Positions 521 through 63,689 of a DNA stretch of 64,000 nt are shown piece by piece. The DNA lies in the NCBI GenBank assembly GCA_951406725.2, contig OX597816.1, positions 148,986,001 to 149,050,000 on the forward strand, written 5' to 3'. Below the pieces are notes generated by a model. It was not told the origin of the DNA. It saw only the letters and a program-made list of their open reading frames with translations, and made no database searches. Source of the DNA: Octopus vulgaris (lineage: Eukaryota). Position numbers and translations under genes: made by a program. Position 1 is the first letter of the stretch; each line of letters opens with the position of its first letter.

Positions 521-901
521 CTTGAGACTTGTACGATAAGTATTTGTCCTCTGTTTCTGAGCTTCCAATCTTGCCTGCCTTTGTTCTGGTGTTTCTGCCC
601 GCCGTCTAGCAAGCTCTCTTTGCCTATGATTTCGTAATCTTAATTGCCTTTCTTCTGCAGTTTCATTTTTCCGTCTTTCCTTTACCCTCATAGCATTCCT
701 ATAAGCATTTGTCTTCTGTTTCCGATCTTCTAATCTTGCTTGTCTTTGTTCTGGTGTTTCTGCCCGCCGTCTAGCAATCTGACTTTGCCTATGATTTCGT
801 AATCTTAACTGCCTTTCTTCTGTAGTTTCATTTTTCCGTCTTTCCTTTGCCTTCATAGCACTCCTGGTGAGACGACCCAGTGCTGATACTTTGGGAGGCA
901 T
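521..901 (-). CDS. First coding exon (4 STPR-like 23-aa repeats) of a further STPR-BTB paralog (copy 0); remaining exons lie left of the window
   Basis: ATG at 901, acceptor ttttctag at 914-915, donor AAG|GTAGAT at 521/520. Repeats ETTEERQLRLRNHRQSQIARRRA and ETPEQRQARL. Bases 1-520 are homologous to the intron following this exon in the other copies. Confidence 0.75.
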
Positions 902-2037
902 AACTTCATAACACTAGAAAACAAGACGTCCTATTATCAGAGAACATTGACACATTTTCTAGATATCTAAAACTAAAATTAGTACAATATCTTTTAAACA
1001 TGTTACAAGCAACAAATTATACCAATAATCCTTTCCCAATTATGTCTACAGAAAACTAGTATTTATATGAAGATTCCAACTGAAATCTTAGTGTATGGTC
1101 TTCACATTGCACAATATTGCTCTTTATAAACGGAGTGTAAGGGATTAGCTCCCCTTGAAAACTATTGTAAATTCGCCATTTTACTAGCGATTAAACTTTG
1201 TATATACTAACACGTATTGGGTCCAAAATCTAAACTCCTGACATACATACATACATATATATATATATAAAGCTGCTTTGCTGGAGTTAACGTGAGAAAA
1301 GTAGTAAAATGTGATTTAAAACATTGCCAAGATGGACACATATTTTAGTAATTAGTTCGATTCCAGGTTTGTAGTTTTATATCGAATTTAGAAATATCAG
1401 GGGGTTTTTTATTTAACACGAAGACAATTGGATATTTACCCGATATTTCATTTTAGATCTTTCAACATCACAAGGATACATATGTCAAGGAAATTTAATT
1501 GTAACACAAATTCTGAATTCGACGAAATCAATGAGTATCTACCTTTTAATCTATTCTGGTGATCGCTGCTCGTTTATTTTGTAAATAATGAACAGATTGG
1601 AACGATTGGGTGGTTTACTGATTTTGAAGTCACAGAATAAACTATATATTTTCGTGTTTAATTGAAGCACGTTCATAAATTATTCTTATTGATTCTAATT
1701 TTTATAAAGTCCCTAAGGCTTTGTATTTTCTTCCCAGAAAATTTGTTATAAGAAACAAATCGATTACAGAGTTGTTCTTTCCTAATATTTTTTAAAACGA
1801 ATTTTGCGTAATGAGGAGTTTTTCTAAAATTTTCTATACATTATATTTAATTAGGATATAGTATCACATATATGTAAAAGATAGTTATATGGTATAAATA
1901 TTTACCCATATATTATTCACTAAAGCGCGACAGGCATGATTAACCATTCATCGCAAAAAGAGAAAAACAATATAGGTAAGCAGGAGGAAACAAAAAATTA
2001 TAATATTTAAGATGTGAAAATAATAGAAACAAATTAA

Positions 2038-7992: not shown

Positions 7993-10900
7993 TCAAGTAA
8001 GACCATCTGTTTTATATAAACCTGTATTTTTGACATTGGTAACTTGTGTTGATGATAATGGTAATCTGTCCCCTTCTGCTGTAAAAAGTCCTACAGGATA
8101 GACATCTTCATTGCTACCACAAATCACATTGTTGTCAATTAACTGAGTTGTTGTTGTTCGATTTAGTGATTTAGAAGAGTCTTCTCTTATGAGTCTTGAT
8201 TCAGAACACAGTTTTTCTTCACTATATGACACAGGAGATAAGTCAGAAACTGGAGAACTTTCAAATACATTACATTTTAATTTGGGTGATGTTCCATATA
8301 TCTTATTTGTTGTTGCTTTGCTATTTGTGGTATCTGAAAATGGTAAGCTAAAATCTGTAGTGGATATAGCTATGGAATTCAAAGGAGTGTTTAGCGCCTG
8401 AGAACTATCAGAAACTGAACTAGATGTTGAAGCTCTTTTATTCATTTGACCATATTTGTCATCATCAGGTCCTACAGGCTCGATTTTTACAGTGGGAAGA
8501 ATATCAGAACCAAATGGAGAGTTGCCACCGTTAGTGTCCAGAGATGCAGCCTCAAACTCTCGCTTAAAGATTCTGACTGTACCTTCTTTAAGCTGTGCTA
8601 ATTCATTCTGGGAAATCTCCTGCTTAATATCCTCAGTAGGAACAGCTGAAATATTAGATGGCATCTGCCGGGAATCATCAAATGCAGTGACTGTCGAAGC
8701 AAGTTGCTGACGTGTTCCACTTTGAAGATGAGCATCACACATATTTTGTAAATCTTTCATGTCTAATTGTTTTGCAATGACTTTTAGCTGTTGTAAAATA
8801 TTAAGATCAAGATCTAATAGTCCAGTATATATGTATTCAGCAAAAGCCATTAAAGCTTCTGTACTAACTACTTCAGGAAATTTTACTTCAAAAACCTGGG
8901 AAGAGATGTATGTACTAAATACTGAGAACAGTTTTGGAGACACAGCAGACAAAACAATTTTATGGACCTGAAATATAGTAAATGATAACAGTATGTTTAC
9001 AGCTTGCCAACAATACATTGATAGACACTTAAGAATCATGTTCATAAAATAGAAAAATGTAAGTTTGTTTTTCCAACTTTTACAAAAGCTACTGACTACC
9101 AAAAGCCATTGGAAGTTCATTTAAACTTCATTTATCTCAGAGAATTATTTCATTAATACTTTAACTAAATCAACTCCATTTTCTTTTCTGTAAAATATTC
9201 TATTGCATTTTAATGACTGAATCATAAAATTTTCTGATAATAATAAGACTCAATTGAATTCTATCTATAACTTCTGATAAAGGCATAAAAAATTTTATGA
9301 CTAATTAATTATAACAGATTTATCTAAAAATTGCACCAGTAAGAAAATACAAATCAACTAGACCTACCTTTAAGAAATATAGAGGGGAGTAGAATAAAGA
9401 ATATTGTGATATTAAGCACATTAGATCTTAAGCATAATCTTTTAGACTTACAAGCTAGATTTTTTAGTTATAATGATGATGACATTAGAAACAGTTTATA
9501 AATATGAAAAAGTTTACAACTGTATACTTACCATCACAGTAGATGAGCCATTGCTAATACTGGCATCACATAATTTCCTACTTCTCCACATAGATGCTAG
9601 GTTAGACATCACATAACGGTGATGACTAGTAACTAGCAATCTTTGTTTCGGTAAATCTGTTATTCTAATTATTGATTTAGATACAGTTGTTTGATTTGGA
9701 TCTTTCACCAGCTTTGATTTGGATGGAGTTATTTGAAATGGTGAAGTCAACACTTGAGCTGGTTTTGTAATATTTTGTGATGCTTGTGCTAAACTTGAAT
9801 CTTGCTGGACTGGCATTTTAGTAGTTAGATGTACACATTTTGAAGTCTTTGGAGATGATAAAGCACTGTCCATTTGCCTAAAATGAAAATTTGCAATTCA
9901 TTGAGAAGAAATATATATAAGAGAAAAACAATAACTCAACAGCATTGTCAAAATACCATTTTAGTTACCACATACCATCTGTCATGTGATTGTTGATTTT
10001 TTAACTTTTGATTCTGCAGGCGTTGCTCCCCAAGGTGCTGTGTTTCATTCTTTTTTTCTTGTATCATTTTCATCTGAGTATTGAGGAAGTGAGGCATGAT
10101 CAAAGAAAGATATAAAGAGATAAAAGAATAAAGATTTCAGTTCATTGGAAATAATTTGAACTATGACGAATTGATAAGTTATTTAATGCAAATGTCAATG
10201 ATAATTAAAAAGCTAACAAATAATATTTAATTTCCACATTGAAACTTTCACTAAGAAAAAATGGAATCTGTCAGCCACGTAAGTATATGGCAAATCCCCA
10301 AAAGCATTCAAAATCAACATGAACAGAGAATCTCTACAGAATTCCAAAATTGAAATGGGAATGGAGTTGGATGTTATACTTATCCTATTCTGAAATCTGA
10401 CATGGTGGTAGATTGTTATAATTTGACTTCAACATCAAATATATAGTAACTGCTGCCACAATTCACACAGACATTCTCTGGTAAATATTTTGCAGAAAAT
10501 TTTTCAACATTGTAATTCCTGATTGAACTTACAATTTACAATTGATCTGACAGCAGCTTCATTAAATTTGTATTTTTATCATATACACGGATTCCAATTT
10601 ATAATGGATAGTGATCCCTCAACACTGTATAGTGTACATGATACTGTATTGCAGGTGTGTATTTCTGTGTTGATGATAATATTAGATAATGAAGTACTGA
10701 GCATGCTTAGTTACTTGACCTGTCTGCTGATGTTTATCAATTGTACAGCTCCTAAACCTGATATGGAGATTCAAGGAAGGTTACAAAGTATGACTGAGCC
10801 TTAATTCATAATTTTATTGAGTTCATTTCTTATGAAAATTGTGGAGAGGCTGCAGTACTAAAAGTTTACATCACAAGAAACCTCATGTTATGAAGCTTCT

Positions 10901-12921
10901 TACGAGGGGTGTATGAAAAGTTTTGAGCCTAACCTAGAAACGGGGCTGCTAGGTAGCTGAAACAATTTTTTCTGGTAAGTACAGTCTTTTGGGAGTATTC
11001 TTGCTCATTTTCATGATTCTGATATTTTAATTTTTTTTGTTACAGATTTTTGAATAAGCAAGTGTCAAGGTTACAAGGAAAATAGAGAAAACTGAGTATC
11101 GTGCTGTCATAAAATACCTTTATTTGAAAGGCATGACTCCATCAGAAATCCATGAAGATATGGTGAGAACCTTAACAGACAGTGCTCCTTGATATGCAAC
11201 AGTCAAACTCTGGGTAAATAAATTCCAGTGTGGCAGGGAGAGTGTGGAAGATGATCCCACACCAGGGAGGCCTCCAACTGCAACCACCGAGGACAACATT
11301 GACCTTGCTCTTGGTATGATAATGCAAGATCATCGAATATCATGTCGTCAGATAGCTGAGAGACTGCGCATCTCAAATGAAAGAGCAGACAACATTGTGA
11401 CAAAAGAACTTGGGTTCTCAAAGGTTTCTGCTAGGTAGATCCCTTGCCTTTTGACTCCTGAACAGAAATGCATCCGGTGCACTTTGTTCATGAGTAATCT
11501 GGAACTGTTTGAAGCCGATGCAAAGAATTTTCTTGCTCGTTTTATTACTATGGACGAAAGTTGGGTTCATCACTACCAGCCTGAAACCAAAGAACAATCA
11601 AAGCAGTGGAAGCATACATCTTCTCCTACCCCAAAGAAGGCCAGGTCATTCTTTCAGCTGGCAAGGTCATGGCATCAGTTTTTTTGGATTCTCAAGGTGT
11701 CTTGCTGATCGATTACCTTGAAAAGGGTCACATCGTGACAGGGATGTATTATTCTCAGCTACTGTAATGCCTCCAGGAAGCAATCAAAGAAAAAAGGCCA
11801 GGAATGCTCACCAGAGGAATCCTTTTTCATCATGACAATGTTCCAGCCCATACCTCAGTGGTTGCCATAGCAACAATTCATGATTGTGGATACGAATTTG
11901 TTCCCCATCTGCCTTATTTGCCAGACTTAGCCCCCTCTGACTTTCATCTATTCCCAAAAATGAAAAAAGCCCTGGCTGGTCGCCATTTTGCCACTGACAA
12001 TGACGTCATAGACACTGTAGGAAGTTTCTTAGAGTCTCAAACAAAACAGTTCCTCTACGCCGGGATAATGGCACTTCAGCACCACTGGAGAAAGTGTTTA
12101 GCCATCAAAGGGGACCATGTTGAAAAATAAATCATCAGAAGTCTTGTACTATGTTTTGTTTTTTTGAGGCTCAAAACCTTTCAGACACCCCTCATAATAC
12201 ATTCATCCTACATATATCTTTGGTCTCTGAAATTAATTGCAATATCAATGATCTCACCAATAAATTCCATAAGCAGATCTTTGTTATATTTCTCCTATAG
12301 GTGTGTGATGCTTAAGAATGTATACCTGATATCTACCTTGAGACTTGTACGATAAGTATTTGTCCTCTGTTTCTGAGCTTCCAATCTTACCTGTCTTTGT
12401 CCTGCTGTTTCAGCCTGCTGACTAACAAATTGTCTTTGCCTTTGGTTTTGTAATCTTAATTGTTTTTCTTCTGTGGTTTCCCTTTTCTGTTTTTCTCTTG
12501 CCTTCTTAGCATGTTTGGTGAGATGGCCCAGTGATGTTAGTTTGGGATGCATAACTTCATTTGGTTGATCTTCATTCATGGAATTTCTTCGCTTTTGAAC
12601 TCTATTTCTCATATTCTGTAGATAAGTTTCCCTCTCCTCAGGATTCATGTTATTTCTTCTCTCCTGATCTTTGTCTCTTTTATTCTGAAGATAAAGTTCT
12701 CTCTCATGTTGGTCCATATTATTTCTTCTTTCACGATCTCTGTTTCTTCTATTCTGAAGATAAAGTTCCCTCTCCTCTTGGTTCATATTACTCCTTATTT
12801 TTTGCATACGTTCTCGAATACGGTCACGGACTGCTTGCCTCTCTTCTGTTGATAACCGCTGCCGTCGTCTTCTCTGTCTTTCTCTTGCTGCCGCTCTTTG
12901 TTGACTTATTCTCTCTTCCAT
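7993..12921 (-). CDS. STPR-repeat/BTB-POZ domain protein, copy A; join(12921-12337,10073-9976,9877-9532,8967-7993), about 667 aa
   Basis: GT-AG junctions with compatible phases (0,2,0) give one open frame. BTB motifs: LASMWRSRKLCDASI..VHKIVLSAVSPKL..AFAEYIYTG..IAKQLDMKDLQNMC. AATAAA on the minus strand about 60 nt after the stop. Confidence 0.85.
10903..12194 (+). mobile_element. Mariner (DD34D) transposon, full length, inactivated, in an intron of copy A
   Basis: About 28-bp TIRs (gaggggtgtatgaaaagttttgagcct), TA duplication at 10901-2 and 12195-6, empty site cttctTAatacat in paralogs. Motifs TMDESWVH, HHDNVPAH, PDLAPSDFHLF, with stops and a frameshift. Confidence 0.93.
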
Positions 12922-14239
12922 TTTTAAGAATAGTTGAATCTGTAAGCGATATAAGAAAAAAGCTCCCTTAGCCTGACAAACGCTGATGGTAAAAGCGTAT
13001 CAATATATAAAATACTAAAGCGAATTATATGTAATCAGTTTTAACTATGCTACAATGAATTTCTTCAGGAATATAATGCAACATTAAAATAGCTTTAGCT
13101 ACACTACATGCTTCCGTAAGAAATCTACTTGTGGAAGTCTACGGTCACATCCCACTATTTTTAATTTTCATAGGCTGTATGCAAATTGTGACCCAAAGAT
13201 AAAATTTGGGAATGTTATGCAAGTTTTTGTTTATTATTGAATATTCTCAATAATTATGAATTATTTCAGATGTATCGTATTTATGTATCCAGTGAAAAAC
13301 AAACAAAAAGAACCTCAAAGCTCCCACCTCCCGGGGATGTTGAAGTGAGCAATGCACAATGTGAAGTCGGTGAACTGTCAAATTGAAAACATAAAATTAT
13401 ATTGTATGAAAATGTATGATTATGTGTAGTATAACACAAAAATTATAAAAATTATTTGATAGTAAAATATGGTCACTATTTAAAGATGATTACATTTTTT
13501 AATGTTTTCCGTGAAGTTTTCACAGGTTGAGGTAGTTTATATAAATCTGTAGAATACGTCAGGTATATTTCATATGATAGATCGAAAGAAAGAGAGTGAA
13601 AGAGAAACAGAGAGAGGGACAGGCATTTATTAATAATATAACTATATATTAGGTTATTGTATGGAAGTATATGGGAAATACATGTTACAGAACTTTCCAA
13701 TATTATAGATAGATAATATATTGTCCTTTTCTTTTTACAAAATCAAGGGAAACAACTCGAATTAAATCCTGACTTATTTCCCTTGGTGTGACAAACACAG
13801 ACGGTATAAGCATATTATAATATAGAAGATGGTCTTCACTTGCACAATATTTGTCTTTTTAAAGGCAGTGTAAGGGATTAGCACTCACTTGCATTAGATT
13901 CAAAATCTGAACTCCTAAATTCGATAAATATATATATATAGCAGGAGTGCCCGGCGTTGCTAGTGGTATGAATGCTTCATCATTCTAAAAACACTTATAT
14001 TCTAGTCTAACAACTAGCGCTACCAAAACTTTTTTGAAAAACATACAGAATTCCATGCCAAAATGTACCAAAATTCACAAAAATATACACAATATTTTTG
14101 AAATGTCACGACCACAAAAATAGAGAAAAATACCAGTTTTTCAACATCTTTGTTCTGGCGAATGGCGTGTTGTTCTTTGTTTTCTGCAGACTGCACAGCA
14201 GCATTTGCTGTAGCATACCTGGCAGCAAAAGTTTTTTCT

Positions 14240-14729
14240 CCACCAGAGTTCTGGACCCTAGCAATGAACTCGTTTGCATACAGCCAATCAGAGCTCACCT
14301 TGTCAAGTTAGCAAGCACACTCTACCAAGTAAATTTAAGACAAACAATGGTGTTGTAAATTGACTGATCACCAAGTTATGCCTGATTTTAGAAGGAGACA
14401 AGTATTAGATAAATTTGCATCTATACCTATTATCAGATTTTGTTAGGGGGCCCCATATGGTAAAGATGTGGGTAGAGGGTGATATGCTAGCAACCCTCTC
14501 CCCTTACTGTTTTAGAAAGTAAACAACACAAATAACTATGCAGAGACAGCCATGGTTGAAACAAGAACAAACATTATTAAAAGAGAAAAGAAGCATCATC
14601 ATTCCTTACCCAAGTGACCTTATCTTATTGCCCATCACTTGTTATGCACACATAAATTATTTTGATAGTTGAGCTCTGATTGGCTGTATGCAAATGAGTT
14701 CATAACTAGGGTCTGGAACTTTCGTGGGA
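14240..14729. mobile_element. MITE-like element with about 55-bp terminal inverted repeats
   Basis: gttctggaccctagcaatgaactcgtttgcatacagccaatcagagctca is inverted at 14670-14722. Confidence 0.6.
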
Positions 14730-16617
14730 TAGATATTTCGCTACCAGGCATGGCGAATGGCAAGATGTTCTTCATTCTCCGCAATTCTTACAGCATTCCT
14801 GGCACAGCAAATGACGCGCTGTTCTTCATTCTTTGCAGTTCATGCAGCAGGGGTTGCTATAACTGTAGCATTCCTGGCATGGTGAATGGCATGCTGTTCT
14901 TTGTTCTCTGCAACTCACACAGCAGCAGTTGCTATAGCATCTTGTATGACAAATAATATGCTGTGACTGAATCAGGTTAGCGTATACTGTAGCTATTAAC
15001 GAAGCATTTCTGATCTGGCGACTGCTATACTGCTCTTTGCTTTCCATGGCTCTTGCGGTGACTGTGCAACCAGCATTTTGTGAATGTCTTCATGCAGTCT
15101 AGTGTGAGGATTCATTTGCTCTCCTTCTCTTCGATGTCTCAACTGCAGCAGTTTTGCAACCAATACGGGCTCTTTTCTTAGGTGGCATTATCTCAGAGTT
15201 TAGAAGCTTCAATTACAAAATGCAGATGTAGCAAAAGTAAATTTAAATACACAGAGGGCAAAAATTTCAGAGGGAGAAAACGAAGAAAATCAGTTGGAAA
15301 CTGCAGAAGTGTTTGGAGAAAAACCCATGTAAAACAGTTTTTCTAGATGGAAGTTAGTGTGTGTGTGAGTGAGTGAGAGAGAGACAGGGTGAAAGAAACA
15401 GACATAGACTAAAAGAGAGGAACTATTACAGAGGGTGAGAGAAAATATCAGTAAGCAACAGAAATAGAGAATGAGATGAGACAGAGAAGAGAGAAACAAA
15501 GAGAGAGAGAAAAGGAAGAGAATCGGTTGAAAATTGCAGAGGTTTTTAGAGAAAAACCCATGTCATCATCATCATTTAGCGTCCACTTTCCATGCTAGCA
15601 TGGGTTGGACAGTTCAACTGGGGTCTGTGAAGCCAGAAGGCTGCATTGGCCCAGTCTGATCTGGCAGTGTTTCTACGGCTGGATGCCCTTCCTAACGCCA
15701 ACCACTCCGTGAGTGTAGTGGGTGCTTTTTAGGTGCCACCCGCAGAGGTGCCAGATGGAGCTGGCAAACGGCCAGGGACGGATGGTGGTTTTTACGTGCG
15801 ACCGGCACGGAGGCCAGTCGGGGTGGCGCTGGCAATGGCCACAATCGGATGGTTCGCTTACTTGTCACCGGCACTGGTATCACAGCTGCAATTTCCATTG
15901 ATGTTGATCGACTTCGATTTTGGTTCTGCTTTCTGATATCTGATTTGATTTGATTTTGATATTGATTTTCACTTGCCTCAACGGGTCTTCACAAGTGGAG
16001 TTTTGTGTCCCAAGAAGGAAAGGTATGTATAAGTCGACTGACTACATACCAGGTAGAGGCCACGGGTTATGGTTTCACTAGTCTTGCCGGGTCTTCTCAC
16101 GCACAACATACTTCCATAGGTCTTGGTCTCTAGTCATTTCCTTGGTGAGACCTAAAGTTCGAAGGTTGTGCTTCACCACCTTGTCCCAGGTTTTCCTGGG
16201 CCTACCTCTTCCACAAGTTCCCTCAACCGCTAGGGTGTGGCACTTTTGCACACAACTATCTTCAGCCATTCTTGTCACATGACCATACCAGCGCAAACGT
16301 CTCTCTTGCACACCACAACTGATGCTTCTTAGGTCCAACTTTTCTCTCAAGGTACTTACACTCTGTCGAGTATGAACACTGACATTACACATCCATCGGA
16401 GCATACTGGCTTCATTTCTTGCAAGCTTACGCATATCCTCAGCAGTCACAGCCCATGTTTCACTACCATGTAGCATGGCTGTTTGTACACATGCATCATA
16501 CAGTCTGCCTTTTACTCTGAGCGAGAGGCCTTTTGTCACCAGCAGGGGTAAGAGCTCTCTGAAATTTGCCCAGGCTATTCTTACTCTAGCAGTTACACTT
16601 TCAGCACACCCACCCCC

Positions 16618-19790: not shown

Positions 19791-19860
19791 ACTTACCCGA
19801 GAAGGGACAACAATAGATGAAATATTCGTTTCCAGAGCCTCCAGGTTCGATAACTCTCAT
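19791..19860 (-). promoter_or_regulatory. Putative non-coding first exon of copy A (proximal)
   Basis: CGG|GTAAGT at 19797/19796; homologous to 2038-2110. Confidence 0.4.
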
Positions 19861-20911
19861 AAATGTTGAATTAGCTTTTTCAACTAGCCTCTGATAAACC
19901 TCAATAACAATGATATTGCCGTTAAGAAAAGCTTCAAACTTCAGTAAAATATAATTTAATGTTAATGGATTTAAAATTATTCATATTTAAGTAAATATTT
20001 ATATTCAAGTAAAAGAAACCATCAAAATTGAGTGTAATTTCATAATGAAATATTTGGAAAAGTGGTGACGATATGATTAACAGAAATTACTAGATGCAGA
20101 CCACTGTTCCTATTGTTATTTGACAATATAAAAAGCTCAGGGTGCTACTGGTCTCATGTGATCAAAAGAATTTAAAAAATCATAAAAGAACACTTTGAAG
20201 AATGATGTTGTCCTTCAATACAGTATGTCTACAAAGAAAGATGGTTTGGCTAGGACTGGAATATATTTGAACTTACGTCTGCTCAATGTGAGCTTTAAAA
20301 AAACAACTGAGATGGGGCTAATAACACTTCATGCCAGACATATTTCTCTGAACATAGGTGTTGTAAGTATCTTTTAATAGGTACTTGACATTCGAGGTAT
20401 CTTTCAAAATCACGAAGACACGTATATCAAAGAAATTTAACTGTAACACCTCATAATCACAATACGCCCTTTCACCAATAAATTACAAGGTATACGGAGC
20501 AGAAAAATTAAGAGAGATAATGGGTTTTTTTAAATAGTGCTTGCGAGCCCATTACAATATCATATTTAGCACTGCTCTCATTCACTAATGGAATGAGTTA
20601 TGGTTAAAGAAATCCCAATCTTTTTTTCTTTTAAATTACCAGATAATCTATGGCACTTCTTGGACAGTGGGGAGGAATGAAATTTGACCAGGATTTTGCA
20701 AGTAACAGTTCTATCATCTCTTTGGATAATTGTGGTACCAATACATATTATTGGATTAGTTCCCCTTGAACACCACTATGAATTCGCCATTTTACGTGCG
20801 ATTTTATTTTGCATACGCTGAATTACATTGGATTCAAAATCTAAACTCCTAAAATATATATGATGAAGCTTCTTTACTGGATTTAACACGAGAAAATAAA
20901 TAAAATATGAT

Positions 20912-21244
20912 GGTAAATTTATAGTTTCACACCAGACTCGATGTCTGTACTAAATAATTTTGACACCACACATGGACACATACACACAAAAAAACATCGA
21001 ACGTTTTTGGTGAGATTTAAAAGAATGAGTGAAAAGACCTAGTATTCGTCCAAACCATCTACACCAGTACCTAGCCAGGTATTTATTTATCTCTGCTACA
21101 GAAAAAAAAATTGCTACATCAATTTTTTATTGAGGTAGCAAAATTATATACACGATGTCAACTAAGACGATTGCACCCAAAACAATTCTGGGAAGAAATT
21201 ATTGAGTACCGAAATCTAGTCTGGCGTGAAACTATAAATTTACC
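20912..21244. mobile_element. MITE with GG..CC termini
   Basis: ggtaaatttatagtttcacaccagac / gtctggcgtgaaactataaatttacc inverted pair; absent from paralogous blocks. Confidence 0.75.
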
Positions 21245-21931
21245 AATAGACCCAGACCAATGAATTCGATTCCAAATTTGTAGTTTTATATCAAATGTAG
21301 AAATGCCGATTATTTTTTTTATTTCGCACAAATTGGGTATTTTTACGATATTTAATTTCAGATGTATTGTTTAGTTCAGGGATTCAAATTTTGAATTCGA
21401 TAAAAGTAATGTGTATATGCCTTTTAACCTAATCTAATGATCACTACCCGTTAATTTTGGAAATAAAGAACAGATTGGAACGATTGAGCACTTTACTCAT
21501 TTTGGAGTCTTAGAATAAACTATATATTTTTGTGTTTCATTGAAGCATGTTGATAAATTATTCTTATTTTCATAACCTCCCTGCGACTTGGCATTTTCTT
21601 CCCAGAAAGTTTGTAATAAGAAACAATTTGATTACAGAGTTGTTCTTTACTAATATTTTTTGAAACATTTTGCGTAATGCCGAGTTTTTCTGAATTTCCT
21701 ATGCATTATATTTAATTCAGATATCACATACATGTAGAAGATGGTTACAAGGTAAAATGTTATTCACTAAAGCACGGCAGGCATGATTAACCATTCATCG
21801 CAAAAAAAAAAACAATATGGGTAACCAGGGGGAAACAAAAAAAATTATAATATTTAAGAAGTGAAAGTAATAGAACCACGTTAAACGATTTTCGAGTATT
21901 TCATAATAGCAAACCGGTGGAAATAAATTAA

Positions 21932-23202: not shown

Positions 23203-25120
23203 TCTATCTATATATATAACTGAGAATGTGTGTATCACTAAAACTCGAGAACTACCCAACCGATTTCCTTTAAACTTTACACATTCCTTTCTTAGGGTCC
23301 ATGGAGTGTCATGGGCCAAAAAATATTTTCAACTTCTTGCCTAATGCGAGCAAGGAGCAATCTCATAGACTGTTTCAGTATTACATGTCAAAAGTAAAAC
23401 AATAGCATCTCTGTTGTAATGAAATATAATAGTTTCACTTTTAATAGTTTCATTTTTATCACTTTGACTATGTATATATACTTGTTTGTTAAATCGCAGT
23501 ATGTGTATAATGACTAATGCATACATTTTCACAATTCTCAACCGATTTTCCCCAAATCTTACAAATATATTAATTGTGTCCCAAGGATGGTCATGCATTA
23601 TAACATTTTGCCCAGAACTTCCACGAAAATGGACATAGTTTTTTGTATGTAGGATCTTCCATACTTTTTTAATCCGTTTTACAAAAGTGAAAGGGTTTTG
23701 TCTATTCATTTACTCCGACTGTCCACCTGCGCGGTGATCCTGTCAGGAAACAGAATTTGGAAGCTGTCATTTTGTTTTCATGTAAATAAATGTTTATGTT
23801 AATTTAAAAGTTTTATCAAAAAATCTTATTTAGCACAACACGTATTATGTCTCCGGTAATTTTCTTCCATGTAAAAAAATGTTATGTTAATTTAAAAGAT
23901 TTTCCAAATTCGTTAAAGGTACATAGTTTTTTTGTGTGTAGGGTTTTCCATACTTTTTAAAACTTATGTCGTCGTATATGGCATTCTAGAATATTTATGA
24001 CTGTGATTAAATTGACTAGGAACACTGTACGCGATGAATATCCAATACAAAACAATTTTAATTTCAATATTTAAGCTGCATTGACCTTTAGCAAGCTTAC
24101 CTTTACCTATTCTGAGTTACTTGAAAGGTGATGTTCCATTTCCTCTCTTCTATTTGTTAATACCTTTGTTTACCTACCAATGTGCTGTTTCACTTTAAGG
24201 ATGCTTATTTTGCCATCCATTATGAAATTTCGATTGTTGTCCATTGTTTCAAATACGTTTTAGCATTGAAGTTCTAGCCTTGGATCTTTTCGGTTTGAAC
24301 GGCAGTTTTTTCTCGCCGTGTCATATGAAATTGTCATCCATAATTATGACCCTAGTATCGATCTATTGCATTTCAATCTGTTTTAGGGTTAGGGGTGGGG
24401 GGAAGGGTATTTTTTTCCATCAGAAATTTAAATAAACCCAATCTGTTTCTTAAACGAGGGACATATTCATACGGCACAGAATGTTTTCACCTCAATAGAC
24501 GTATTTGATTGGTTGAAATTGCAGAAAAAAAACAACAAATATCTTAAAAACTATAGAATTTTCTCAATAAAGCCAAGAGAAAAAGATGTTTTATAAATAC
24601 ATTCTACCCATATACGAAGTTTAAAATTTTTTAGTTACCTAGAAATTATGTTAAAAACTGCCGTTCAAACCGAAAAGATCCCTAGCCTTTTTTAAACAAT
24701 CACATGATTCGTCCCAAAGAATTAACCTTTAAATAAGTGTTTTGCTACCGCTAGCGAACGTTATACGTATCTTTCAGAAAGCTCCATACCTATTTCATTT
24801 TACGCGGCATTCACTGTTACCTTATGCGCAAGCTATGTGGAAAGACATAATAAAGTGACTTTTGTTAGCTTATAATAGAATCAATAATCACTTGGTACAC
24901 TAAAACCTATTTTCCTTTTCCAGATAATAGAAGCATGCCACCTAAAATGAGAGCACACATTAGCATAAAGTCTTCTGCAGCAGTACTGACAGGCTAAGGA
25001 AACTGAGGACCAGAGGTCCTGCACGAAAAAGCTGCCACTGCTAGAGCTGCAACTACTCCAGAGCAGCATGAAACTTATTGAGTGCGTGCTGCTGATGCAA
25101 GGGCCACAGAAACCCCATAA
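23203..25120 (+). mobile_element. Non-autonomous Helitron-like relic
   Basis: 5' TCTATCTATATATATAA followed by gtgtgt, internal direct repeats, and decayed ORF start MPPKMRAHIS.. ATTPEQHET at 24935; 3' end not identified. Confidence 0.45.
24282..24681. mobile_element. MITE, Merlin-like (GG..CC ends, 8-bp TSD)
   Basis: TIR ggatcttttcggtttgaacggcagtttt; TSD ctagcctt at 24274-81 and 24682-89. Confidence 0.85.
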
Positions 25121-25144
25121 AAGTGTGCTATTCGTCAGGCACGC

Positions 25145-25305
25145 AATGCTGCATCAACCCATTTCTTTGCAAGAAGTACATCCATGCCCCTGACCTCGTC
25201 AGTGTTCCCTGCCCAGAAAATCTTGTACCTGTGTTCTTTGCCTGTGAGGAACCTAGCAGAACCTCCTCTCCATCTTACTTCTTGGAGGCAGCACAAATCA
25301 CCTCT
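25145..25305 (-). mobile_element. RTE LINE apurinic-endonuclease fragment
   Basis: DLCCLQEVRWRGGSARFL..YKIFWAG. Confidence 0.65.
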
Positions 25306-30600: not shown

Positions 30601-31080
30601 ACAGGTGCAAGGTGAGGCTGGCAATGGCCACGATCGGTTGGTGCCAATTCTTAATGAAAATTGTGGAGAGGCTGTAATACTAAAAGTTGACATCACAAGA
30701 AACTTCATATCATAAACCTTCTTAATACATTTATCCTACATATATCCTTGGTCTCTGAAATTAATTGCAATATCAATGACCTTGCAAATAAATTCCATAA
30801 GCAGATCTTTGTTATATTTCTCCTATTGGTGTGTGATGCTTAAGAATGTATACCTGATATCTACCTTGAGAGTTGTACGATAAGTTCTTGCCCTCTGTTT
30901 CTGAACTTCTAATCTTGCCTGCCTTTGTTCCACTGTTTCTGCCTGCCGAAGAGCAAATTGTCTTTGCCTCTTATCTTGCAATCTTAATCGTTTTTCTTCT
31001 GTGCTTTCCCTTTTCCGTCTTTCTCTTGCCCTCTGAGCAGATTTGGTGAGACGGCCCAGTGATGATCGTTTGGTACGCAT
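27682..31080 (-). CDS. STPR-repeat/BTB-POZ domain protein, copy B; join(31080-30865,29669-29560,29463-29121,28656-27682), about 547 aa
   Basis: Same splice sites and phases as copy A, open frame, 2 STPR-like repeats plus BTB. Confidence 0.85.
30415..30645 (-). mobile_element. RTE 3'-tail copy / RTE-derived SINE in an intron of copy B
   Basis: Matches 15563-15850; (CAT)n end; empty site at about 42583 in copy C. Confidence 0.85.
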
Positions 31081-31170
31081 AACTTCATTACACTAGAGAA
31101 AAAAATGTCGCATTTAATGAGAACACTGACACACATTTTCTAGACATCCAAAACAAATAGTACAATATCT

Positions 31171-42670: not shown

Positions 42671-45600
42671 TCTATATCTATAAAACAGTCCTTGGATGAA
42701 AATTGTATGCACATTTTGCTTTGATGGTTAATGGCGGCCAAACCGAGGCTTGGATCAAGTTGAAAATTGGCAAGGATACTAAATGCATGGTGAGGATGAG
42801 ACCTGTGATGGTTAAAATTCACAAGCTATAAAGATGTGGTTGCTATGGCAAAAAGAGTGATTTTTTTATCGATTCAAGGGGCCCAGAGCCCCTCTAGGTT
42901 TGTGCGATTGGCTTTAAATGCCCAGTGGCATGCACTGCAGGCTGTTGTGCTTAATAAACATACATTTTGTCACGAAATTCCGGCTACTAGGGAACGATTT
43001 TTCATTGTGAAAAAATGATTGCTTTTTGCCCTCATTTTCTTTTTAATTTCTTACTACTTACATTGTTGGCATTTTCAGAAAAAAAATTATATCTACATGT
43101 AGCCCTTCAGAAGGGCTATCATGCACATTTTTCTTGACGCGAAATCTTGCTTTCAAAGTCAAAAACACTTAACAATTAAACAAAAATGTTGAATATTTTC
43201 TGTCATGTACAGCTTAATATAACATCATCGTTGTGAGCTGCAACTTTGCCACAAGAGAATTATCAATTTTTTTCACGGCTGCATAAACTAATTAAGCCAC
43301 AGTTCTAGCAATCTTATGAAAGCTGCCGATGACATGTGTTTTCTTCATTGAAAAGTCATTTGGATGTAAAATACATGTTTTTTTCAAAAAAAGAGAAAAA
43401 CAAATAATGATCACGTGTTAAAAAAATTGGGGAATCTAATGAGACAAGATTTAAGTCTCAATCTAGAAAGATGTGTTTGCATTGGTCAAAAGAGTACTTT
43501 TTTCGATTTAAGGGGGCTCTCACAACAGCCCAGTGACCGTCATGATATAGTCGCCAGAGTCTTTCACCTCAAATTAAATCTCCTGATGTTCTTGCTGAAA
43601 AAGGAGAAAATCTATGGACCTCTGAATGTATAGATGTATACTGTGGAGTGGCAGAAGCAAGGTCTTTCACACAAACACATTCTCATTTGGTGTAAGGAAA
43701 AAATCAAACCTGCAGATATTGATAGAGTTATCAGTGTTGAGCTTCCAGATCCCACCACTGATCCACAACTTCACAACATTGTTTTGACCAACCTTCTGCA
43801 CGGACCCTGCGGCCCTCTTAACCCCAGAAAAGCATCTATGGAGAACAACAAATGCAGCAAGCAGTACCCCAAGGACTTCGTGAGCGCAACTTGCATAGAA
43901 ACCCACAGCTATCCCATCTACCAATGGCACACTCCAGATTTTGGCAGCATTTCTGTTGAGGTGAGGAAGGACAGTGTCACATACTTCACTGACAACAGCT
44001 GGGTTGTGCCTTACAGGCCCCAACTTGCAAAAATTTTCAATGCACACATCAATGTTGAGAGCTGCACCTCCATCAGGAGCATCAAGTACATCAACAAAGG
44101 CAGTGACATGGTGGTGTTGATGAAGACAGCGGAGTGGATGAAGATGATGTGAAGACAGTGGAGTTGATGAAGATGATGTGAAGACAGCGGAGTTGATGAA
44201 GACAACGTGAAGACAGCGGAGTGGATGAAGACGACATGAAGACAGTGGAATGGAAGGGGTGATGTGAAGACAGCGGAATGGAACGGACGACATGAAGACA
44301 GTGGAGTGGATGAAGACAACGTGAAGACAGTGGAGTGGTTGAAGACGACGTGAAGACAGCGGAGTGGATGAAGACGACGTGAACACAGTGGAATGGTAGG
44401 GGTGACGTGAAGACAGCGGAATGGAACGGACGACATGAAGACAGTGGAGTGGATGAAGACTACATGAAGACAGCGGAGTGAATGAAGATGACATGAAGAC
44501 AGCAGAGTGGATAGAGATGATATTAGACAGGCAGAGGATGAAAGTGAGGAAGAGTGAATGGGAGTTGATTGGAGGGGAAAGTGAATGGATAGGGCGTTGC
44601 GTTGGCTGGCGGCATGTGTGGAGTTGTGTTTGATCATTGAAGTGCTACTTTATAGATGACATTTTTTGTTTTACAAGATTGCTGCAAAACCAACGTACAG
44701 TTAACCATGAGTAAAAACGTCCTGCATCAGGTTTAGTCCAACGACTTGAAGTGATTGACCTTGTGCTTTATTGATACTCATTCCAAAACACACTTTAATT
44801 GGAAATTGTTTGTGTGTAAACTCGAATGGACAGTCGGATGGACTTAGACTTAGGGGAGTTAGCAATTTTGTCATGCCTGCAGATAAGAATGGTTGTGGTG
44901 AGAATGCGAGTGCTGATGGCTGTGATGATAAGTCTTGTTCTGTTGCACAGTTCTGGTGGGTCGATGTTCCTAAGCAGCATAACTGGAGCACCGACTTTGA
45001 GTCTGAGGTCATGGGAAGGAAGCCCGGAAGGTTGTTGGGTGTTGAGGAATTCAGCAGGATAGTTGATAGCGTCATAAGCATTGTTTGTAGTGTCGATGGA
45101 CTTAAATGACACTTTGTTCCCAGGAATGCAGTTGAGGAGTTTTTGATTCATAGTATCGACAGTTGCGTTGTGTGTGGCTAAAATGGCTCGACCTGTAGCC
45201 AGCTGGGATTATGAAAGTTTGCTTCAAGGTCTGGAAAAACTGCCAAGATTAAATCTTCGATGCTTTCAACAAAATTTCCAAAGGGGAGATGAATATGGTC
45301 TGCATCGATGGCAGGTGCAGTTCCGTTTCCAACATTGAGCAGCTGTCTGGAGAATTCTTCAGAATCTGCATCCCCATGCAAATGCACTCTCATGTTGGTG
45401 GTGAGGTGAAGTTTCTCAACATGGCGCCAAAGGTGAGACGATTTGATGCATGCTTTCACTTCATCTGCTCTTGTGCTGCTGGTGATTACAGGAAGTGTCT
45501 GTTGGAAATCTCCAGCCAAAAGTACTGTCACACCACCCATCAGTCTAGCATTTCGACGCAGGTCTTGAAGAGTCCGATCAAAAGCCTCAAAAGCTGACTT

Positions 45601-47900
45601 GTTGCTCATTGTTGCCTCATCCCAAATAATTAGACAGCAATCAGAAAGAAGTTTTCCTCTGGGCATGCCTCAATTTATTCTGCATATAGGATTCTGCATA
45701 TAGGATTCTCCTTTCTTGCAATATCCAATGGCAATTTGAAGGCTGAATGTGCTGTTTTACAGCCATGCAACAAAGTCACTGCAATTCCACTTGATGCAGC
45801 TGCCAAAGCGATTCTCCTGTCTTTTCGCAGTTTTGCAAGTAGAAGGTTGATGACAAATGTTTTGCCTGTGCCACCTGGAGCATCCAAAAAGAAAAGTGTA
45901 CCTTCATTTGAAATGACACTGGAAAAATTCTGTTGTACGCGAATTGCTGTTCAACCAAAAGTTTGGATTCATTTCGAGCCACCATTTTGGTTAATTCTTC
46001 AAGGTTGTAGTACAATTCCGTGATGTATTCTGAATCTAAAATGCCATCTCTGTAGACAGGGTTTGGAATACCGAAATGAGATACACCGTCGAATCCAGCA
46101 GCTCAGAGACGCCTATCGATATAAAGGAGCGCCTCGTTGTAGATTTCATTGTTGTATTCTCTTGCGTGTAGTCTTCACAAGATGTCCTCCGACATGCTGT
46201 TTTTGTGCATTTCCCACAGCTGTAGGGGTTTACTTACATCGCAGAATCACAGCATACTGCAGAACAATCACCGCATCTCCGTCATGCTCCATCGTGAAGC
46301 TGTGTGTATTCAGCAGCTCAGAGCTCCTTTGGTGAGTGCAGATGTAGAGAAGACGTTCGGATTCAATTTTGGCATACATGTCAACAAAGAACTGATTAGT
46401 GACATCTTTGAACCGTAGCAGCTTGTTGAAATCGTTATCCCGAACCATCATTCGGTAGGCATAAAATGCCTTGCAAGAAACTTTTTTGCACAGGAACTCG
46501 AGTTGTTGGGTGTATCCGTTGTATGTGGAAGTGGTAGCCATCGTCACCACGTGGAAACAAGAGTGAATACTGAAGACAGTTGTAGGAGCAGTGGGTTTTG
46601 GAGACAAATGACAATCGGTTACTTCGGTGTTGGAGAACAATGTCGTGGGTGCTGTGTTCTTTGTCAACCATGATGGCTGCAATTTCGCTGGTTGTCGGAG
46701 CGTTGAATCTTCGAGGATGTTCGCCGGCTGGTGTCTTGTCAGCTCAGATGACCAGTTTCATTTCAGGTCTGGAGTCCAAAAATTCAGTAGCAACTTTCAG
46801 ATCGTGGACGTATGGATGGGTTTCATGAAGCATTGTTTGAAGTTCTTCAATGACGCTGCCATTAATGGAGGTATTTCTGCTACATCTAAGGGATGGTTCT
46901 TCTTCATTTCTGCCCATGAAGACTTGCATAAATCTCGGCTCCTCTCCTTGCTGTGGTCGAAGTTTCCAATCAAGTGGTAACACTGGCCTTGAATTTTTTA
47001 AGTGTAAAGTTTTTCTCTGGGCCTGGTTTGATCAGTTCGAGAAGTGCCAGCAACATCTGTGTTGTCGATGTTTGTTCTAGCATTTTGTCCATCCCTAATA
47101 CCGAAAGACGTCATTGCGAAGCAGGAATTGTACTTCTACAAATTCTTGCGAAATAATTTCCCGTGGTCTGAGTTACCGGTGAGAAGATCACAGAGTAATT
47201 GAGGAGGCTCAGCCAGTGGCTCAAGATTAACTTTGGTCCCGGAACAGCAAAGGCCCGGAGTCTCACATTTCCACTTTTTGGCTCCGCAGAAGTTGCACAC
47301 TTTGTCCATCTTTCCAGTAGACACATCAGCTCGACTGGCGTAGTCATAGGCAGGGTCGTAGTTGAAGGCAACCGAGGAAACGAACTGTTGACCAGGAGAA
47401 TTATAATTCATTTTAATAAAAGCATCAATTTAAAAAAAAAAAATAAAGTAGTAACAAATGAAAATTTAGCACAAAAAATGTGGAGGCTTCTAAATAAATG
47501 TTCAAATATAAAAGATACAAATATAGACGGCGAATTAAAATAAAGCACAGTTCAGATATAATAAACGTGCATTAAAAATTGAAATTGCTGTAGGTTAAGT
47601 AATACAGGAACCGAAAAAAGATTGTTCAAATAATCGACCCATGAAATTTGTAGTGTGTTGATTGGGTAAATCGTTTTAGAAAATATTTAATTAAATATTT
47701 ATTTAAAAAATTTTTATTCAAAAAACGTACGTGATAAGCACAAAGCAAATGCTTGATGGCAGGTTCTCTTTTTATTTGCTCCATCGGCGAGTTTTGGGCG
47801 GTTGAGGATTCCAAGGAGTGAGCCTTCATGGAGAAAAGGTGGAAAAAAGCAATGTGCTAAAAAAATTATTATTATCTAGTCAGTTTTTCTCAGTAAATTT
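42671..47900. mobile_element. Rearranged, degraded RepHel Helitron complex
   Basis: TCTATATCTATAAAA 5'-type end at 42671. Plus-strand Rep motifs at 43510-44115 (DIVARVF, VEWQKQGLSHKH, HGPCG, WVVPY, HINVE). Minus-strand Zn-finger (47411-47136, CNFC..CC), YAYRMM/FFVDMYAKIE, and Pif1 helicase (GGTGKT, IIWDEATM, GDFQQTLPV, NMRV, SINKAQGQSL). Confidence 0.9.
44121..44512. repeat. About 29-bp minisatellite, about 13 units
   Basis: Unit gaagacagcggagtggatgaagacgacgt with variants; lies just 3' of the minus-strand helicase. Confidence 0.9.
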
Positions 47901-48415
47901 CAAAAGAACGAAGAGCTCATTTAAATTTAATGTATAAAATATGAATACGTTTTGTTTTTGTAATTGGCAGTTAAAGCATGGAAAAAATGTGCTTTAAGTA
48001 TAGCTTAGAAAAATGGAGAAAAAATAATGAATGAGGGATTATTTTAATGATTTTAATGTTGTCAGTAAAGTAAAATGTAAAAAAATAAATTTTAAAAAAA
48101 GGAATCTGATCACCAGAACGCGAGCGAATAGCCCATATCAGAAGTATTTTTCTTTTAGGTAAAAAGGCTATTTATTAATCAAAAAATTACCCGAGCATGT
48201 GCCTTCCTCTTTCGCAATTTCCTCATTCTAGCTCGGTGGTTTGATAAGTTGGAGCGCTTACGCATAGGCATATTGAAAAGCAAATCTGAAAAATAAAATA
48301 TTTTGAAACCAAAAGATGATTTGATTTACAATGAGAAAAGGAATAAAATAGTTGAGAAGGGATTCAAAATCTGGACTTCGGAATGTATATGTATGTATAT
48401 ATATATATATATATA

Positions 48416-59300: not shown

Positions 59301-59960
59301 GTATAGTGTACATGATACTGTATTGCAGGTGTGTATTTCTTTGGTGCTGATAATACCAGATAATGAAGTACTGAGCACACTAAGTTACTTGACCTGCCTG
59401 CTGATGTTTATCGATTGCACAGCTCCTAAACCTGATATGGAGATTCAATGAAGCATACAAAGTATGACTGAGCCTTAATTCATGATTTTGTTCAGGTGCA
59501 AGGCGAGGCTGGCAACGGCCACGATCGGTCGGTGCCAATTCTTAATGAAAATTGTGGAGAGGCTGTAATACTAAAAGTTGACATCACAAGAAACTTCATA
59601 TCATAAACCTTCTTAATACATATATCCTTGGTCGCTGAAATTAATTGCAATATTAATAACCTCGCATATAAATTCCATAAGCAGATCTTTGTTATATTTC
59701 TCCTATTGGTGTGTGATGCTTAAGAATGTATGCCTGATATCTACCTTGAGAGTTGCACGATAAGCTCTTGTCCTCTGTTTCTTAGCTTCTAATCTTGCCT
59801 GCCTTTGTTCCACTGTTTCTGTCTGCCGACAAACCAATTGTCTTTGCCTATGATTTTGTAATCTTAATTGCCTTTCTTCTGTGGTTTCCCTTTGACGTTT
59901 TTCTCTTGCCCTCCTAGCTTCTTTGGTGAGACTGCTCAGTGATGATCGTTTGGGGCGCAT
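56350..59960 (-). CDS. STPR-repeat/BTB-POZ domain protein, copy D; join(59960-59745,58726-58617,58520-58178,57321-56350), about 546 aa
   Basis: Same splice sites and phases, open frame, 2 STPR-like repeats plus BTB. Confidence 0.85.
57643..58033 (-). mobile_element. Short non-autonomous Helitron in the last intron of copy D
   Basis: CTAG at 57643-46; 5' TCAATATCTAAAAAGCTGAAATGC resembles the 50412 end; absent in paralogs. Confidence 0.6.
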
Positions 59961-61189
59961 AATTTCATAACACTAGAAAAAAAATTTCCTTTTTTAAGAG
60001 AACATTGACACACATTTTCTAGATATCTAAAAAAAATTAGTACGATATCTTTTAATCAGAATGTTACAAACAACAAATTATACCAATAATTCTTTCCTAA
60101 TTATGTCTACAGAGAACTAGTATTTATATGGAGATTGCATCTGAAATATTAGTGTATGGTCTTCACTTTATACCTTATTGCTCTTTAGAAAGGCAGTGTA
60201 AGGGATTAGGTCCCCTTGAACACTATTATAAATTGGCCACATTACTTGCGATTTCACATCATATATGCTGACTCACATTGGATTCAAAATCTGAACTGAA
60301 TTTCTGTATATATATATGATGAAGCTTCTTTGCTACAATCAACACGAGAAAATAATTAAAATATGATCTTAAACCCTGCTGAGATTGACCCATACCAATT
60401 TGTGATTTTGTATCAGACTGGACTACCCATGACCCGTTGGGTCACCTGGACAGTCGGAGTTTTCTAGCAACGGATTTGTGTTTCATGGCTTTTTTTCTTC
60501 TCCAGTCTATTTTGCATGCTTTCAACGAATGTGACATATCGTAATCATGCATAAATGATTCCTTTATTCAGAAAAGGAAAGACTTCGCTGCAATTTCTTG
60601 CATGCCCTGGTATCACATAACAAGTATTTCGAGTCCTGTATCGCAAAAAGCTGTCAGTTATAGTACACACATACACACAAGAACAAGCACGCAGTTGACA
60701 AGACTTCCTCATGGAAACTAACAAATATTTTGTTTTCATTCGGTAATACAAAAGAAAAATTAAGATACAATATACTATTTCTGAGATTGTAAAATCCCAC
60801 ATGCGGTTAATAGAGAATACATAAAAGTATAACTATTCTTAAAGAAAACCACTGATCTGAACTTCAAACACCAATGATACAGTCATGGGTAACAGCAATG
60901 GAGAAGCCTTCCAGGTAGCAAAGGATACCAATTCTACAGTGCTTAGATCTCATCTTTCTTTGGCAACTTCAAGGTAGCAGCACTGCCACCACCACTGTTA
61001 TTGTTAAATCACCCAACTCCTAGTAGTACAGAGGTAATAGAAGATGCAGTTATCTTTCAAAATCATGATGATACATATATCAAGGAAATATAAACCTTCT
61101 GCCTAAACAATACATCCTTAACGCGAAAACCCTAACACTAACTACAAAAATTTTTGGAAACTTTTTTCAGAATCATAATCAGTGTGTGT

Positions 61190-63060: not shown

Positions 63061-63689
63061 ATATATGTATGTATATATATATGTATATGTATATATGTAT
63101 ATATATCAATAATACAGTAATTGTTTCTTATCAGGAACAAAATGTTTAATAGGACTGCTATAGAAGTGCTCAATTAAATGAGACAAATATATTAAACTGT
63201 GGTTGCAGAACAAACAAATACAAGGTCATCCACGTAACATTTCATATCTCGAACATTTAATCACATAATGCTTTTTCTTTCACATAGAATATACATGTAT
63301 AACATCACGGAAGATGAAACACAACTCATCAGTACAAGCATATAAGAAAATACAAGAAAAATGCGTGAATACAGTTCATCTCGGTTAAAAGTTAACGCTT
63401 AATATTTTAGCAATTAAGAAATATATATTTTTTAAAAAACATTACAACACCTAGAATAATAAAAATATAAGAAATATATAGATATATAAAAATACATATA
63501 TAAGTATAGGAAGCATATAAATAAGTAATATATAATATATAAGGTCAGATAAAAGTTCATTGTTTAGAAAAATTTTTTCCGATTCAAAATTACTTTTCAG
63601 ATAAGGGAAACCTATAGTTAAAAGCCAGTGTCCAAGCAAAAATGAAGAAAACATATTTACATTCCCTATGGCCATAGGGAATGTAAATA

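Follow-up and report, generated by a model that had tools for sequence, protein, structure and literature searches.

A 64,000-nucleotide stretch of the Octopus vulgaris genome (GenBank assembly GCA_951406725.2, contig OX597816.1, positions 148,986,001 to 149,050,000 of the forward strand; G000:C3:148986001-149050000 in our coordinates), hereafter the window, contains part of a tandem array of genes for BTB-domain proteins. The array comprises 12 BTB paralogs on the minus strand across ∼210 kb, the window included; positions written with a plus sign count from the window start and lie past its end. Copies 0–4, in the window, form one clade with the paralog at +79837 (support 100/100), and the named proteins that match the window come from O. 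vulgaris, O. sinensis and O. bimaculoides. Here, we describe the short modules that stand ahead of the BTB domain in several of these genes and their relationship to the N-termini of RepHel proteins, which are encoded by rolling-circle transposons of the Helitron type.

The exons of copy 1 were read from RNA contigs, using four sequencing runs as evidence for splice joints (support is given below as runs out of four; the runs are treated as RNA because GT-AG joints are present in them). These contigs define a 5′ exon (donor 19797), an optional exon (15206–14610), and exons at 12939–12391, 10073–9976, 9877–9532 and 8967–7993, with GT-AG joints throughout. The 5′ exon region (19797..21900, upper bound approximate) is specific to the cluster and is not itself a dispersed repeat. 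From the ATG at 12921 the chain is open for 649 codons, or 667 with a donor at 12337, and encodes repeats, a linker, the BTB domain and a low-complexity tail, in that order. Downstream of the repeats lie a small coding exon (9976..10073, from RNA joints and a frame check), an exon for the linker and the N-terminal half of the BTB domain (9532..9877, from RNA joints; the paralogous exons end at 29121, 41278 and 58178), and an exon for the C-terminal half and the tail (7993..8967, recognized by Pfam BTB; paralogous exons start at 28656, 40704 and 57321). The joint 12391>10073 is present in 4/4 runs, and a single 836-nt contig runs from the optional exon through the repeat and small exons into the beginning of the BTB exon. 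Pfam scans of the BTB proteins P0001, P0002, P0005 and P0007 found no zinc finger after the BTB domain, which has the N-terminal extension typical of dimerizing transcription-factor BTBs.

Four copies (0, 1, 2 and 4) have in common an exon, which we call exon A, that encodes a 24-residue leader followed by STPR repeats (Pfam PF21107). Exon A occupies 521..913 in copy 0 (with an internal 165-nt duplication; the acceptor is predicted, and the N-terminus matches the O. sinensis model P0217), 12337..12561 in copy 1 (leader and two repeats; donors at 12391 in 4/4 runs and at 12337 in 3/4, the latter perhaps from reads of a paralog), 30865..31092 in copy 2 and 59745..59972 in copy 4, all on the minus strand. 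Splice sites are predicted in copies 2 and 4, and 64 of 72 residues of the copy 4 exon are identical in the O. bimaculoides model P0003. In the available text of two studies, each STPR unit spans 23 residues, is helical, is marked by Glu1, Thr/Ser2 and Arg9, and follows the major groove of AT-rich DNA at 4 bp per repeat (PMC4856987), and the repeats with the preceding basic stretch also work as a nuclear signal (PMC4821344). Glu1, Thr/Ser2 and Arg9 are invariant in both exon A repeats of the four paralogs. Only the copy 0 exon exceeds the Pfam cut-off (31 bits versus 27), and the best PDB match of the exon A repeats is FMBP-1 (5d23, E=0.006). A single-sequence AlphaFold model of P0005 contains a long helix with a break at residues 48–49 and is poor elsewhere (mean pLDDT 48.7); leads from an ESM Atlas search were all under 0.8.

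Animal Helitron proteins commonly start with a basic leader and STPR-type repeats. The initial annotation had said as much, and the statement was borne out in a set of 120 Helitron proteins selected solely through their body (the best 120 of 389). An N-terminal extension is present in 95 of these, 62 of which contain two E[TS]x6R units 23 residues apart and 48 of which begin with a basic leader of the Met-Pro type. Precomputed Pfam annotation places PF21107 on 23 of the 120, so that the co-occurrence of STPR and Helitron domains is already implicit in databases. In the octopus genome itself, 24 of the 30 PF21107 loci that were fetched run into a Helitron body. The N-terminal 489 residues of the Helraiser transposase are required for DNA binding, according to the available text of PMC4778049; the zinc finger lies within this stretch too, so that the requirement does not by itself assign the repeats a part in transposition.

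The first 120 codons of copy 1 were captured from such a Helitron N-terminus, as the DNA itself demonstrates. A 1.27-kb segment between 13829 and 12562 is unique to copy 1 among the copies. This segment (module B, 12562..13829, minus strand) is the 5′ end of a second Helitron family, comprising the 5′-TC, a leader region, the acceptor at 12939, the ATG at 12921 and 120 codons in frame with exon A. It is 76–82% identical at the DNA level to the dispersed copies L088–L093; the family encodes a zinc finger, Rep and a PIF1 helicase (by tblastn), and remains of Rep and helicase lie downstream of three of the four copies that were extended. The 5′-TC at 13829 recurs as a TC start in five dispersed copies, and the 5′ junction falls at A|T, with the empty site in copies 0 and 4; the 3′ junction is deleted. 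Dispersed copy L089 already has the acceptor that is used at 12939. The Helitron sequence ends just before its zinc finger, where it joins exon A in frame. Module B is spliced in 4/4 runs. The O. bimaculoides model P0002 has the same fusion, with 110 of 119 module B residues identical, compared with 77/84 in the C-terminal BTB half and 200/238 in the tail. The capture predates the O. vulgaris/O. bimaculoides split, which is given as 13.3–33.5 million years in the available text of PMC13282606.

A third Helitron family contributed to a paralog ∼60 kb past the window. Here, module C (+123932; L042:9932-9480, G000:C3:149109932) consists of 1.8 kb that is 85–87% identical to L076, L079 and L081, members of a family in which a Helitron body follows at 5 of 10 places. 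Module C brings a Helitron leader and STPR start and is joined to the N-terminal BTB half inside one exon, in a host duplicate that is 89–93% identical to its neighbor, and RNA contigs from 4/4 runs cover this exon. The full protein exists as gene model P0007; no named ortholog of module C occurs among the protein matches to this paralog. The capture is thus established as DNA and doubtful as protein: in 4/4 runs the joint leads to an alternative acceptor, after which the frame ends 16 codons on, before the C-terminal BTB half, and the joint that would complete the BTB domain appears in 1/4 runs and could come from a paralog.

The window also contains Helitron remains at an earlier stage. The initial annotation had pointed to Helitron-like relics beginning at 15188 (minus strand) and 24935 (plus strand) and had likened them to the gene exon starts at 901 and 59960 (both minus). 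All four peptide starts are located there. Stops and frameshifts break both relics, and the E.EQ..R repeats behind them are present in degenerate form. Their genomic matches identify both as the 5′ ends of Helitrons from dispersed families. Elsewhere in the genome, the 15188 piece is matched 43 times (68–89% DNA identity), with a Helitron zinc-finger/Rep body following in 5 of 19 fetched loci; the 24935 piece likewise has 43 further matches, with a body following in 12 of 14. Among the dispersed copies checked for the relic and module C families, both Rep and helicase were seen in L110 and L111. The 24935 relic (24700..25158, plus strand, from a further family) is antisense to the genes and has no listed splice joint. 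The 15188 relic (14000..15560, minus strand) is assigned to the L056/L069 family by its 71–87% DNA identity with dispersed copies, and its upstream part is cut by a SINE/RTE-LINE insertion.

Part of the 15188 relic has become an exon. The optional 5′ exon of copy 1 (14610..15206, 597 nt, minus strand, GT-AG joints) lies in this relic; its inclusion joints, 19797>15206 and 14610>12939, are present in 4/4 runs, and the skipping joint 19797>12939 in 2/4. The acceptor sequence also occurs in dispersed copies L056 and L057, and the donor at 14610 sits within a nested element with ∼86-bp inverted ends (14214..14752; self-match of 14752-14667 to 14214-14300, 82%). The exon contains 18 upstream ATGs, none of which opens into the main frame; the one at 15188, the start codon of the Helitron, heads an upstream ORF of 29 codons. 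This is a non-coding exonization that would probably dampen translation. The 15188 relic displays the first half of a capture route, spliced but closed by stops.

Exon A itself is older, and its origin has to be argued from its protein sequence. Because the repeats of Helitron proteins are STPRs themselves, what discriminates them from other STPR proteins is the RepHel-type leader at Helitron spacing, a feature defined in this analysis rather than by a published criterion. Using 39 non-redundant, body-selected Helitron proteins, we derived a position profile for the 22 residues that precede the first repeat, scored against an R/E/Q-rich background. Anchoring succeeded for 60 of the 95 extended Helitron proteins, and some mis-anchored rows were kept in the profile. 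The four exon A leaders score 13.3–16.4 bits (p<=2e-4 against shuffles), and four homologs, from O. bimaculoides or unassigned, score 8.3–22.5; the leave-one-out median of the Helitrons is 8.3. The leader of the 15188 relic scores 13.0, and the 24935 relic is absent from the hits because its leader contains a stop. The distance from Met to Glu in exon A is 24, the Helitron mode (39 of 60 anchored proteins have 24–25). Eight non-Helitron STPR sequences, a small control that contains neither FMBP-1 nor ZNF821, score −12.4 to 5.7 at the first repeat and at best 7.8 at any repeat. Finally, a search of 1.84 billion representatives with an exon A profile gave 86 hits; outside Octopus, 21 of 84 have a Helitron body, many of the rest being fragments, and none has a BTB domain, and those that cover the leader mostly start in the Helitron manner.

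Could this likeness be convergence on a basic N-terminal nuclear signal combined with an R/E-rich composition? MP-K-K-R starts are common in nuclear proteins, and in pairwise comparison the copy 2 leader scores equally against its best Helitron and its best non-Helitron match (53 versus 53). Against this, the shuffles behind the p values preserve composition, and a scan of 364 kb with 546 open Met..Glu pairs gave seven scores of at least 5, namely the four exon A starts and three Helitron starts proven by DNA, leaving 0 of 546 unexplained. Modules B and C, which match by DNA, lie outside the reach of convergence altogether. We consider convergence very improbable. Compositional bias alone, which the initial annotation had offered as a way for its proposal to fail, does not account for the resemblance between relic and exon starts.

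A second alternative is that exon A descends from a cellular STPR exon of the ancestral cluster gene, and that modules B and C alone were taken from Helitrons, replacing or extending like with like. Several results argue in this direction and count against a Helitron source for exon A. A protein search of the genome for its donor gave four matches, all in the window, and a DNA search gave ten, all in the cluster (common words were skipped in this search, so absence is unproven); exon A thus has no DNA trace of a donor. A Helitron zinc-finger profile found no remnant in the introns behind exon A. The exon A repeats alone score equally against Helitron and non-Helitron STPRs, and a FastTree phylogeny of leader plus repeats places the exon A clade beside a mostly non-Helitron group, near the STPR-like ORFs of the distant paralogs, with a support of 0.38. 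These ORFs, which have other, non-Helitron leaders and no dispersed DNA copies where such copies were sought, stand at +102068, +136453, +142885 and +203999, upstream of those paralogs; others are found in solo genes 2.3 Mb away. On the other side, the leader profile gives these same ORFs scores of −3 to −14, compared with 13–16 for exon A, which also has the Helitron Met spacing; and the leader-covering hits outside Octopus are mostly Helitron-like, with the body and BTB counts given above. A cellular source is, in our judgment, unlikely, and exon A is probably Helitron-derived. Two expectations of the initial annotation were modified in the process. Its relics are indeed Helitron 5′ ends, though not shown to be donors of exon A, whose DNA matches are confined to the cluster; and a repeat phylogeny, from which a decision between cellular STPRs and Helitrons had been expected, offers no clean choice, since Helitron repeats are STPRs, the tree is poorly supported and the leader alone separates the two.

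Retention across species is seen for two of the modules. Modules A and B are present in O. bimaculoides (P0002, P0003) and module A in O. sinensis; ortholog identity in O. bimaculoides is 0.89–0.92 for modules A and B, 0.88–0.92 for the BTB domain and 0.81–0.84 for the tail. No other coding part differs as much among the paralogs as exon A does (pN 0.15–0.21 and pS 0.10–0.20, compared with 0.07–0.09 in introns). Four paralogs have accumulated at least 73 substitutions in exon A with no stop, where 4–5 would be expected (P about 0.01). The variation is unevenly distributed: it affects 2 of 12 columns for the structural positions (E1/T2/x5/R6/R9/L10), 6 of 12 for the groove-facing positions and 16 of 22 for all others. 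We considered positive selection, as pN exceeds intron divergence (p 2e-5 to 0.02) with pS raised too, and do not claim it, because the same values also fit an exon that is older and has escaped gene conversion. We read exon A as a kept scaffold with paralog-specific surfaces rather than as proven adaptive change.

These data also bear on the view that the fusions are tolerated by-products, in which Helitrons landing in a redundant, recombining array are exonized by means of the acceptors they bring, and the resulting products do little, except perhaps provide a nuclear signal. Several observations favor this view and weigh against functional capture: dN/dS in exon A is ∼1 among paralogs (0.23–0.73 in the C-terminal BTB half), the exon is lost or broken in two of six close paralogs (copy 3 is without it, and +79837 has a broken remnant), module C has its truncating splice, and the 18 ATGs of the relic exon precede the copy 1 frame. 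It is opposed by frames kept open both among the paralogs, at the probability given above, and in O. bimaculoides, and by the conservation of modules A and B, which matches that of the BTB domain and exceeds that of the tail. We regard it as quite unlikely.

We therefore favor, at a probability of roughly 0.7, the reading that the N-termini of Helitron RepHel proteins supplied this octopus BTB cluster with N-terminal coding modules, with two captures documented by DNA and a third, exon A, likely, and with predicted roles in DNA binding and nuclear import. The initial annotation's central proposal, that a BTB gene captured a transposon module, is accordingly upheld by DNA evidence for the opening 120 codons of copy 1 and for the paralog with module C, and by indirect argument for exon A. 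In copy 1, where the route is established, a Helitron inserted in sense, at an A|T site, in the intron ahead of the BTB exons. The host 5′ exon splices to an acceptor that the element carries just before its ATG, and a deletion dropped the zinc finger, Rep and helicase, leaving the repeats in frame with the coding sequence that follows. Such insertion in sense, splicing to the acceptor of the element, a deletion or cryptic donor, in-frame joining, transcription and retention in two species are each observed in copy 1 or the cluster.

The function of the fusion proteins can be outlined by analogy. The basic leader would act as a nuclear signal, and the 23-residue helical repeats may bind the major groove of AT-rich DNA by its shape, as in FMBP-1 of the silkworm. 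Because two repeats cover ∼8 bp by the FMBP-1 rule, we invoke dimerization through the BTB domain, which would double the short array and add avidity. Repression through partners is a property of such BTB domains and may be the output here. Together, the fusion proteins would make up a small set of chromatin or transcription regulators specific to this lineage. Two features of the repeats count against DNA binding of this kind. Exon A has only two repeats, compared with three or more in described STPR members (copy 0 has two pairs 32 residues apart), and the copy 1 donor at 12391 cuts the second. Moreover, the module B repeats keep the 23-residue (69-bp) period without Glu1, Arg9 or Thr/Ser2 and give no Pfam match; they are a variant repeat in the equivalent RepHel position. 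As to targets, FMBP-1 prefers units such as ATAC and ATAT, and Arg9 is among the defining STPR residues (available text of PMC4856987). Units of this type abound in the window as microsatellites, and binding may for that reason be broad rather than Helitron-specific; that the proteins target Helitron-derived DNA is a hypothesis. We can extend it, at low probability, to a cluster that works as a Helitron-tracking array, taking the DNA-binding front ends of successive families and diversifying them, with the BTB domain bringing silencing or competition to Helitron ends, which would make it the cephalopod counterpart of KRAB-transposase fusions. In that scenario the STPR would be a Helitron domain in origin, and older domestications would account for FMBP-1, ZNF821 and the STPR proteins of fly and worm.

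Further Helitrons surround these genes. A degraded, rearranged element with zinc finger, Rep and PIF1 remains (43520..48300, minus strand) occupies the site where copy 3 has no exon A, and a short leader-like exon begins near 48271. Another body (63590..64000, minus strand) lies upstream of copy 4, with its leader and repeats beginning 1.2 kb past the window end. The element at 43520-48300 is 82–84% identical to a related multi-exon Helitron at L038/L039 (+83000 to +86800), and both stand in sense upstream of paralogs in which exon A is lost or broken. We tried this R/E-rich family, upstream of copy 3 and +79837, as the donor of exon A and rejected it, the resemblance being generic to STPRs. 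Helitron enrichment in the cluster is not significant (four body-bearing places in ∼225 kb versus none in ∼139 kb of flank). Other mobile elements in the introns and spacers comprise an RTE-type LINE with a SINE, two mariner fragments and a LINE endonuclease fragment (15563-17660; 11768-12130; 19089-19445; 52731-53231). In gene models P0001, P0219 and P0220, from two other species, a first exon belonging to one copy is attached to the body of a different copy, which may reflect splicing between copies, gene conversion or mis-mapped reads.

STPR repeats also appear in other settings. Loci L002–L029 belong to a young, abundant Helitron family whose second repeat is closely like the FMBP-1 repeat, and some of its frames are open for 500–600 codons. 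Three tandem single-ORF genes (L001, L020 and L023; G000:C3:151.34-151.37 Mb) contain STPR repeats only and a GRPRKY-like start, and ORFs like these lie at +142885 and +203999, upstream of distant BTB paralogs. The +142885 ORF has one paralog in the cluster; two other matches are weak, and their flanks, as fetched, contain no Helitron body. Basic ORFs with 23-residue repeats (L040:8071-7649 and L044:2453-2154) stand at +102068 and +136453, upstream of BTB paralogs; a genome DNA search for dispersed copies of these two found none, and one ORF of this type is joined to BTB in the O. bimaculoides model P0009. Models from prawn and cricket, and one with an ARF7EP_C domain (P0040, P0088, P0065 and P0086 in all), combine a Helitron-type leader and STPR repeats with non-Helitron sequence, and are possibly independent captures or chimeric models. 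P0019, P0020, P0022, P0064, P0090 and others have leaderless STPR arrays ahead of cysteine motifs, which are presumably Helentron/Helitron2 N-terminal domains; STPRs may thus head both Helitron groups.

The arrangement resembles several known systems and differs from each. The host-transposase fusions KRABINER, SETMAR and CSB-PGBD3 likewise arose by sense intronic insertion, use of a transposon acceptor and in-frame fusion with a host domain; their donors were cut-and-paste elements rather than rolling-circle Helitrons, and the word ‘helitron’ is absent from the available text of bioRxiv 10.1101/2020.05.07.082677. In the octopus cluster, by contrast, the captured part is the N-terminal repeat array, which ends up as the initial coding exon ahead of a BTB domain, and capture recurs from different Helitron families in one cluster. 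The Caenorhabditis F-box A2 genes offer a second parallel, with a multicopy interaction-domain family, a Tc1/mariner HTH module and Helitrons nearby; there, Helitrons supply regulatory DNA only, the captured HTH acts in protein binding, and the available text mentions neither STPR nor octopus (PMC12062965). The STPR proteins FMBP-1, ZNF821, CG14440/CG14442 and C05D11.13 share with exon A the 23-residue period, Glu1, Thr/Ser2 and Arg9, and also Arg6 and Leu10; the available text of PMC4856987 and PMC4821344 draws no link between STPRs and transposons. FMBP-1 as described there has four C-terminal repeats from residue 99, whereas exon A has two from residue 25, after a Helitron-type leader and ahead of a BTB domain. 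ZBTB and Ken-type factors contain C2H2 zinc fingers after the BTB domain; here there are none, and the putative DNA-binding part is N-terminal. The HelibatN3 exon-trap Helitrons of bats produce chimeric transcripts, mostly with a new 5′ UTR, much like the 15188 exon; they spread a captured host promoter and donor, whereas here the element's own coding N-terminus is kept in a host protein (available text of PMC4778049). The available text of bioRxiv 10.1101/2022.12.18.520930 mentions neither Helitrons nor STPRs, and a title and abstract search, with subscription papers and supplements outside its scope, found no literature joining STPR to Helitrons or describing host capture of RepHel.

Host capture of transposon DNA-binding domains has been described for cut-and-paste transposases; the octopus cluster adds the RepHel protein as a donor. 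One cluster displays four stages of the process, namely a non-coding exonization, a young fusion, a fusion shared between species and an old exon without a DNA trace. The comparison also names a candidate DNA-binding module at the Helitron N-terminus, for which FMBP-1 provides a solved structural model, and makes the origin of STPR transcription factors testable. Helitrons expanded in octopus genomes ∼25 million years ago (available text of PMC13282606), and the captures described here are predicted to have added a lineage-specific family of regulators to these genomes.

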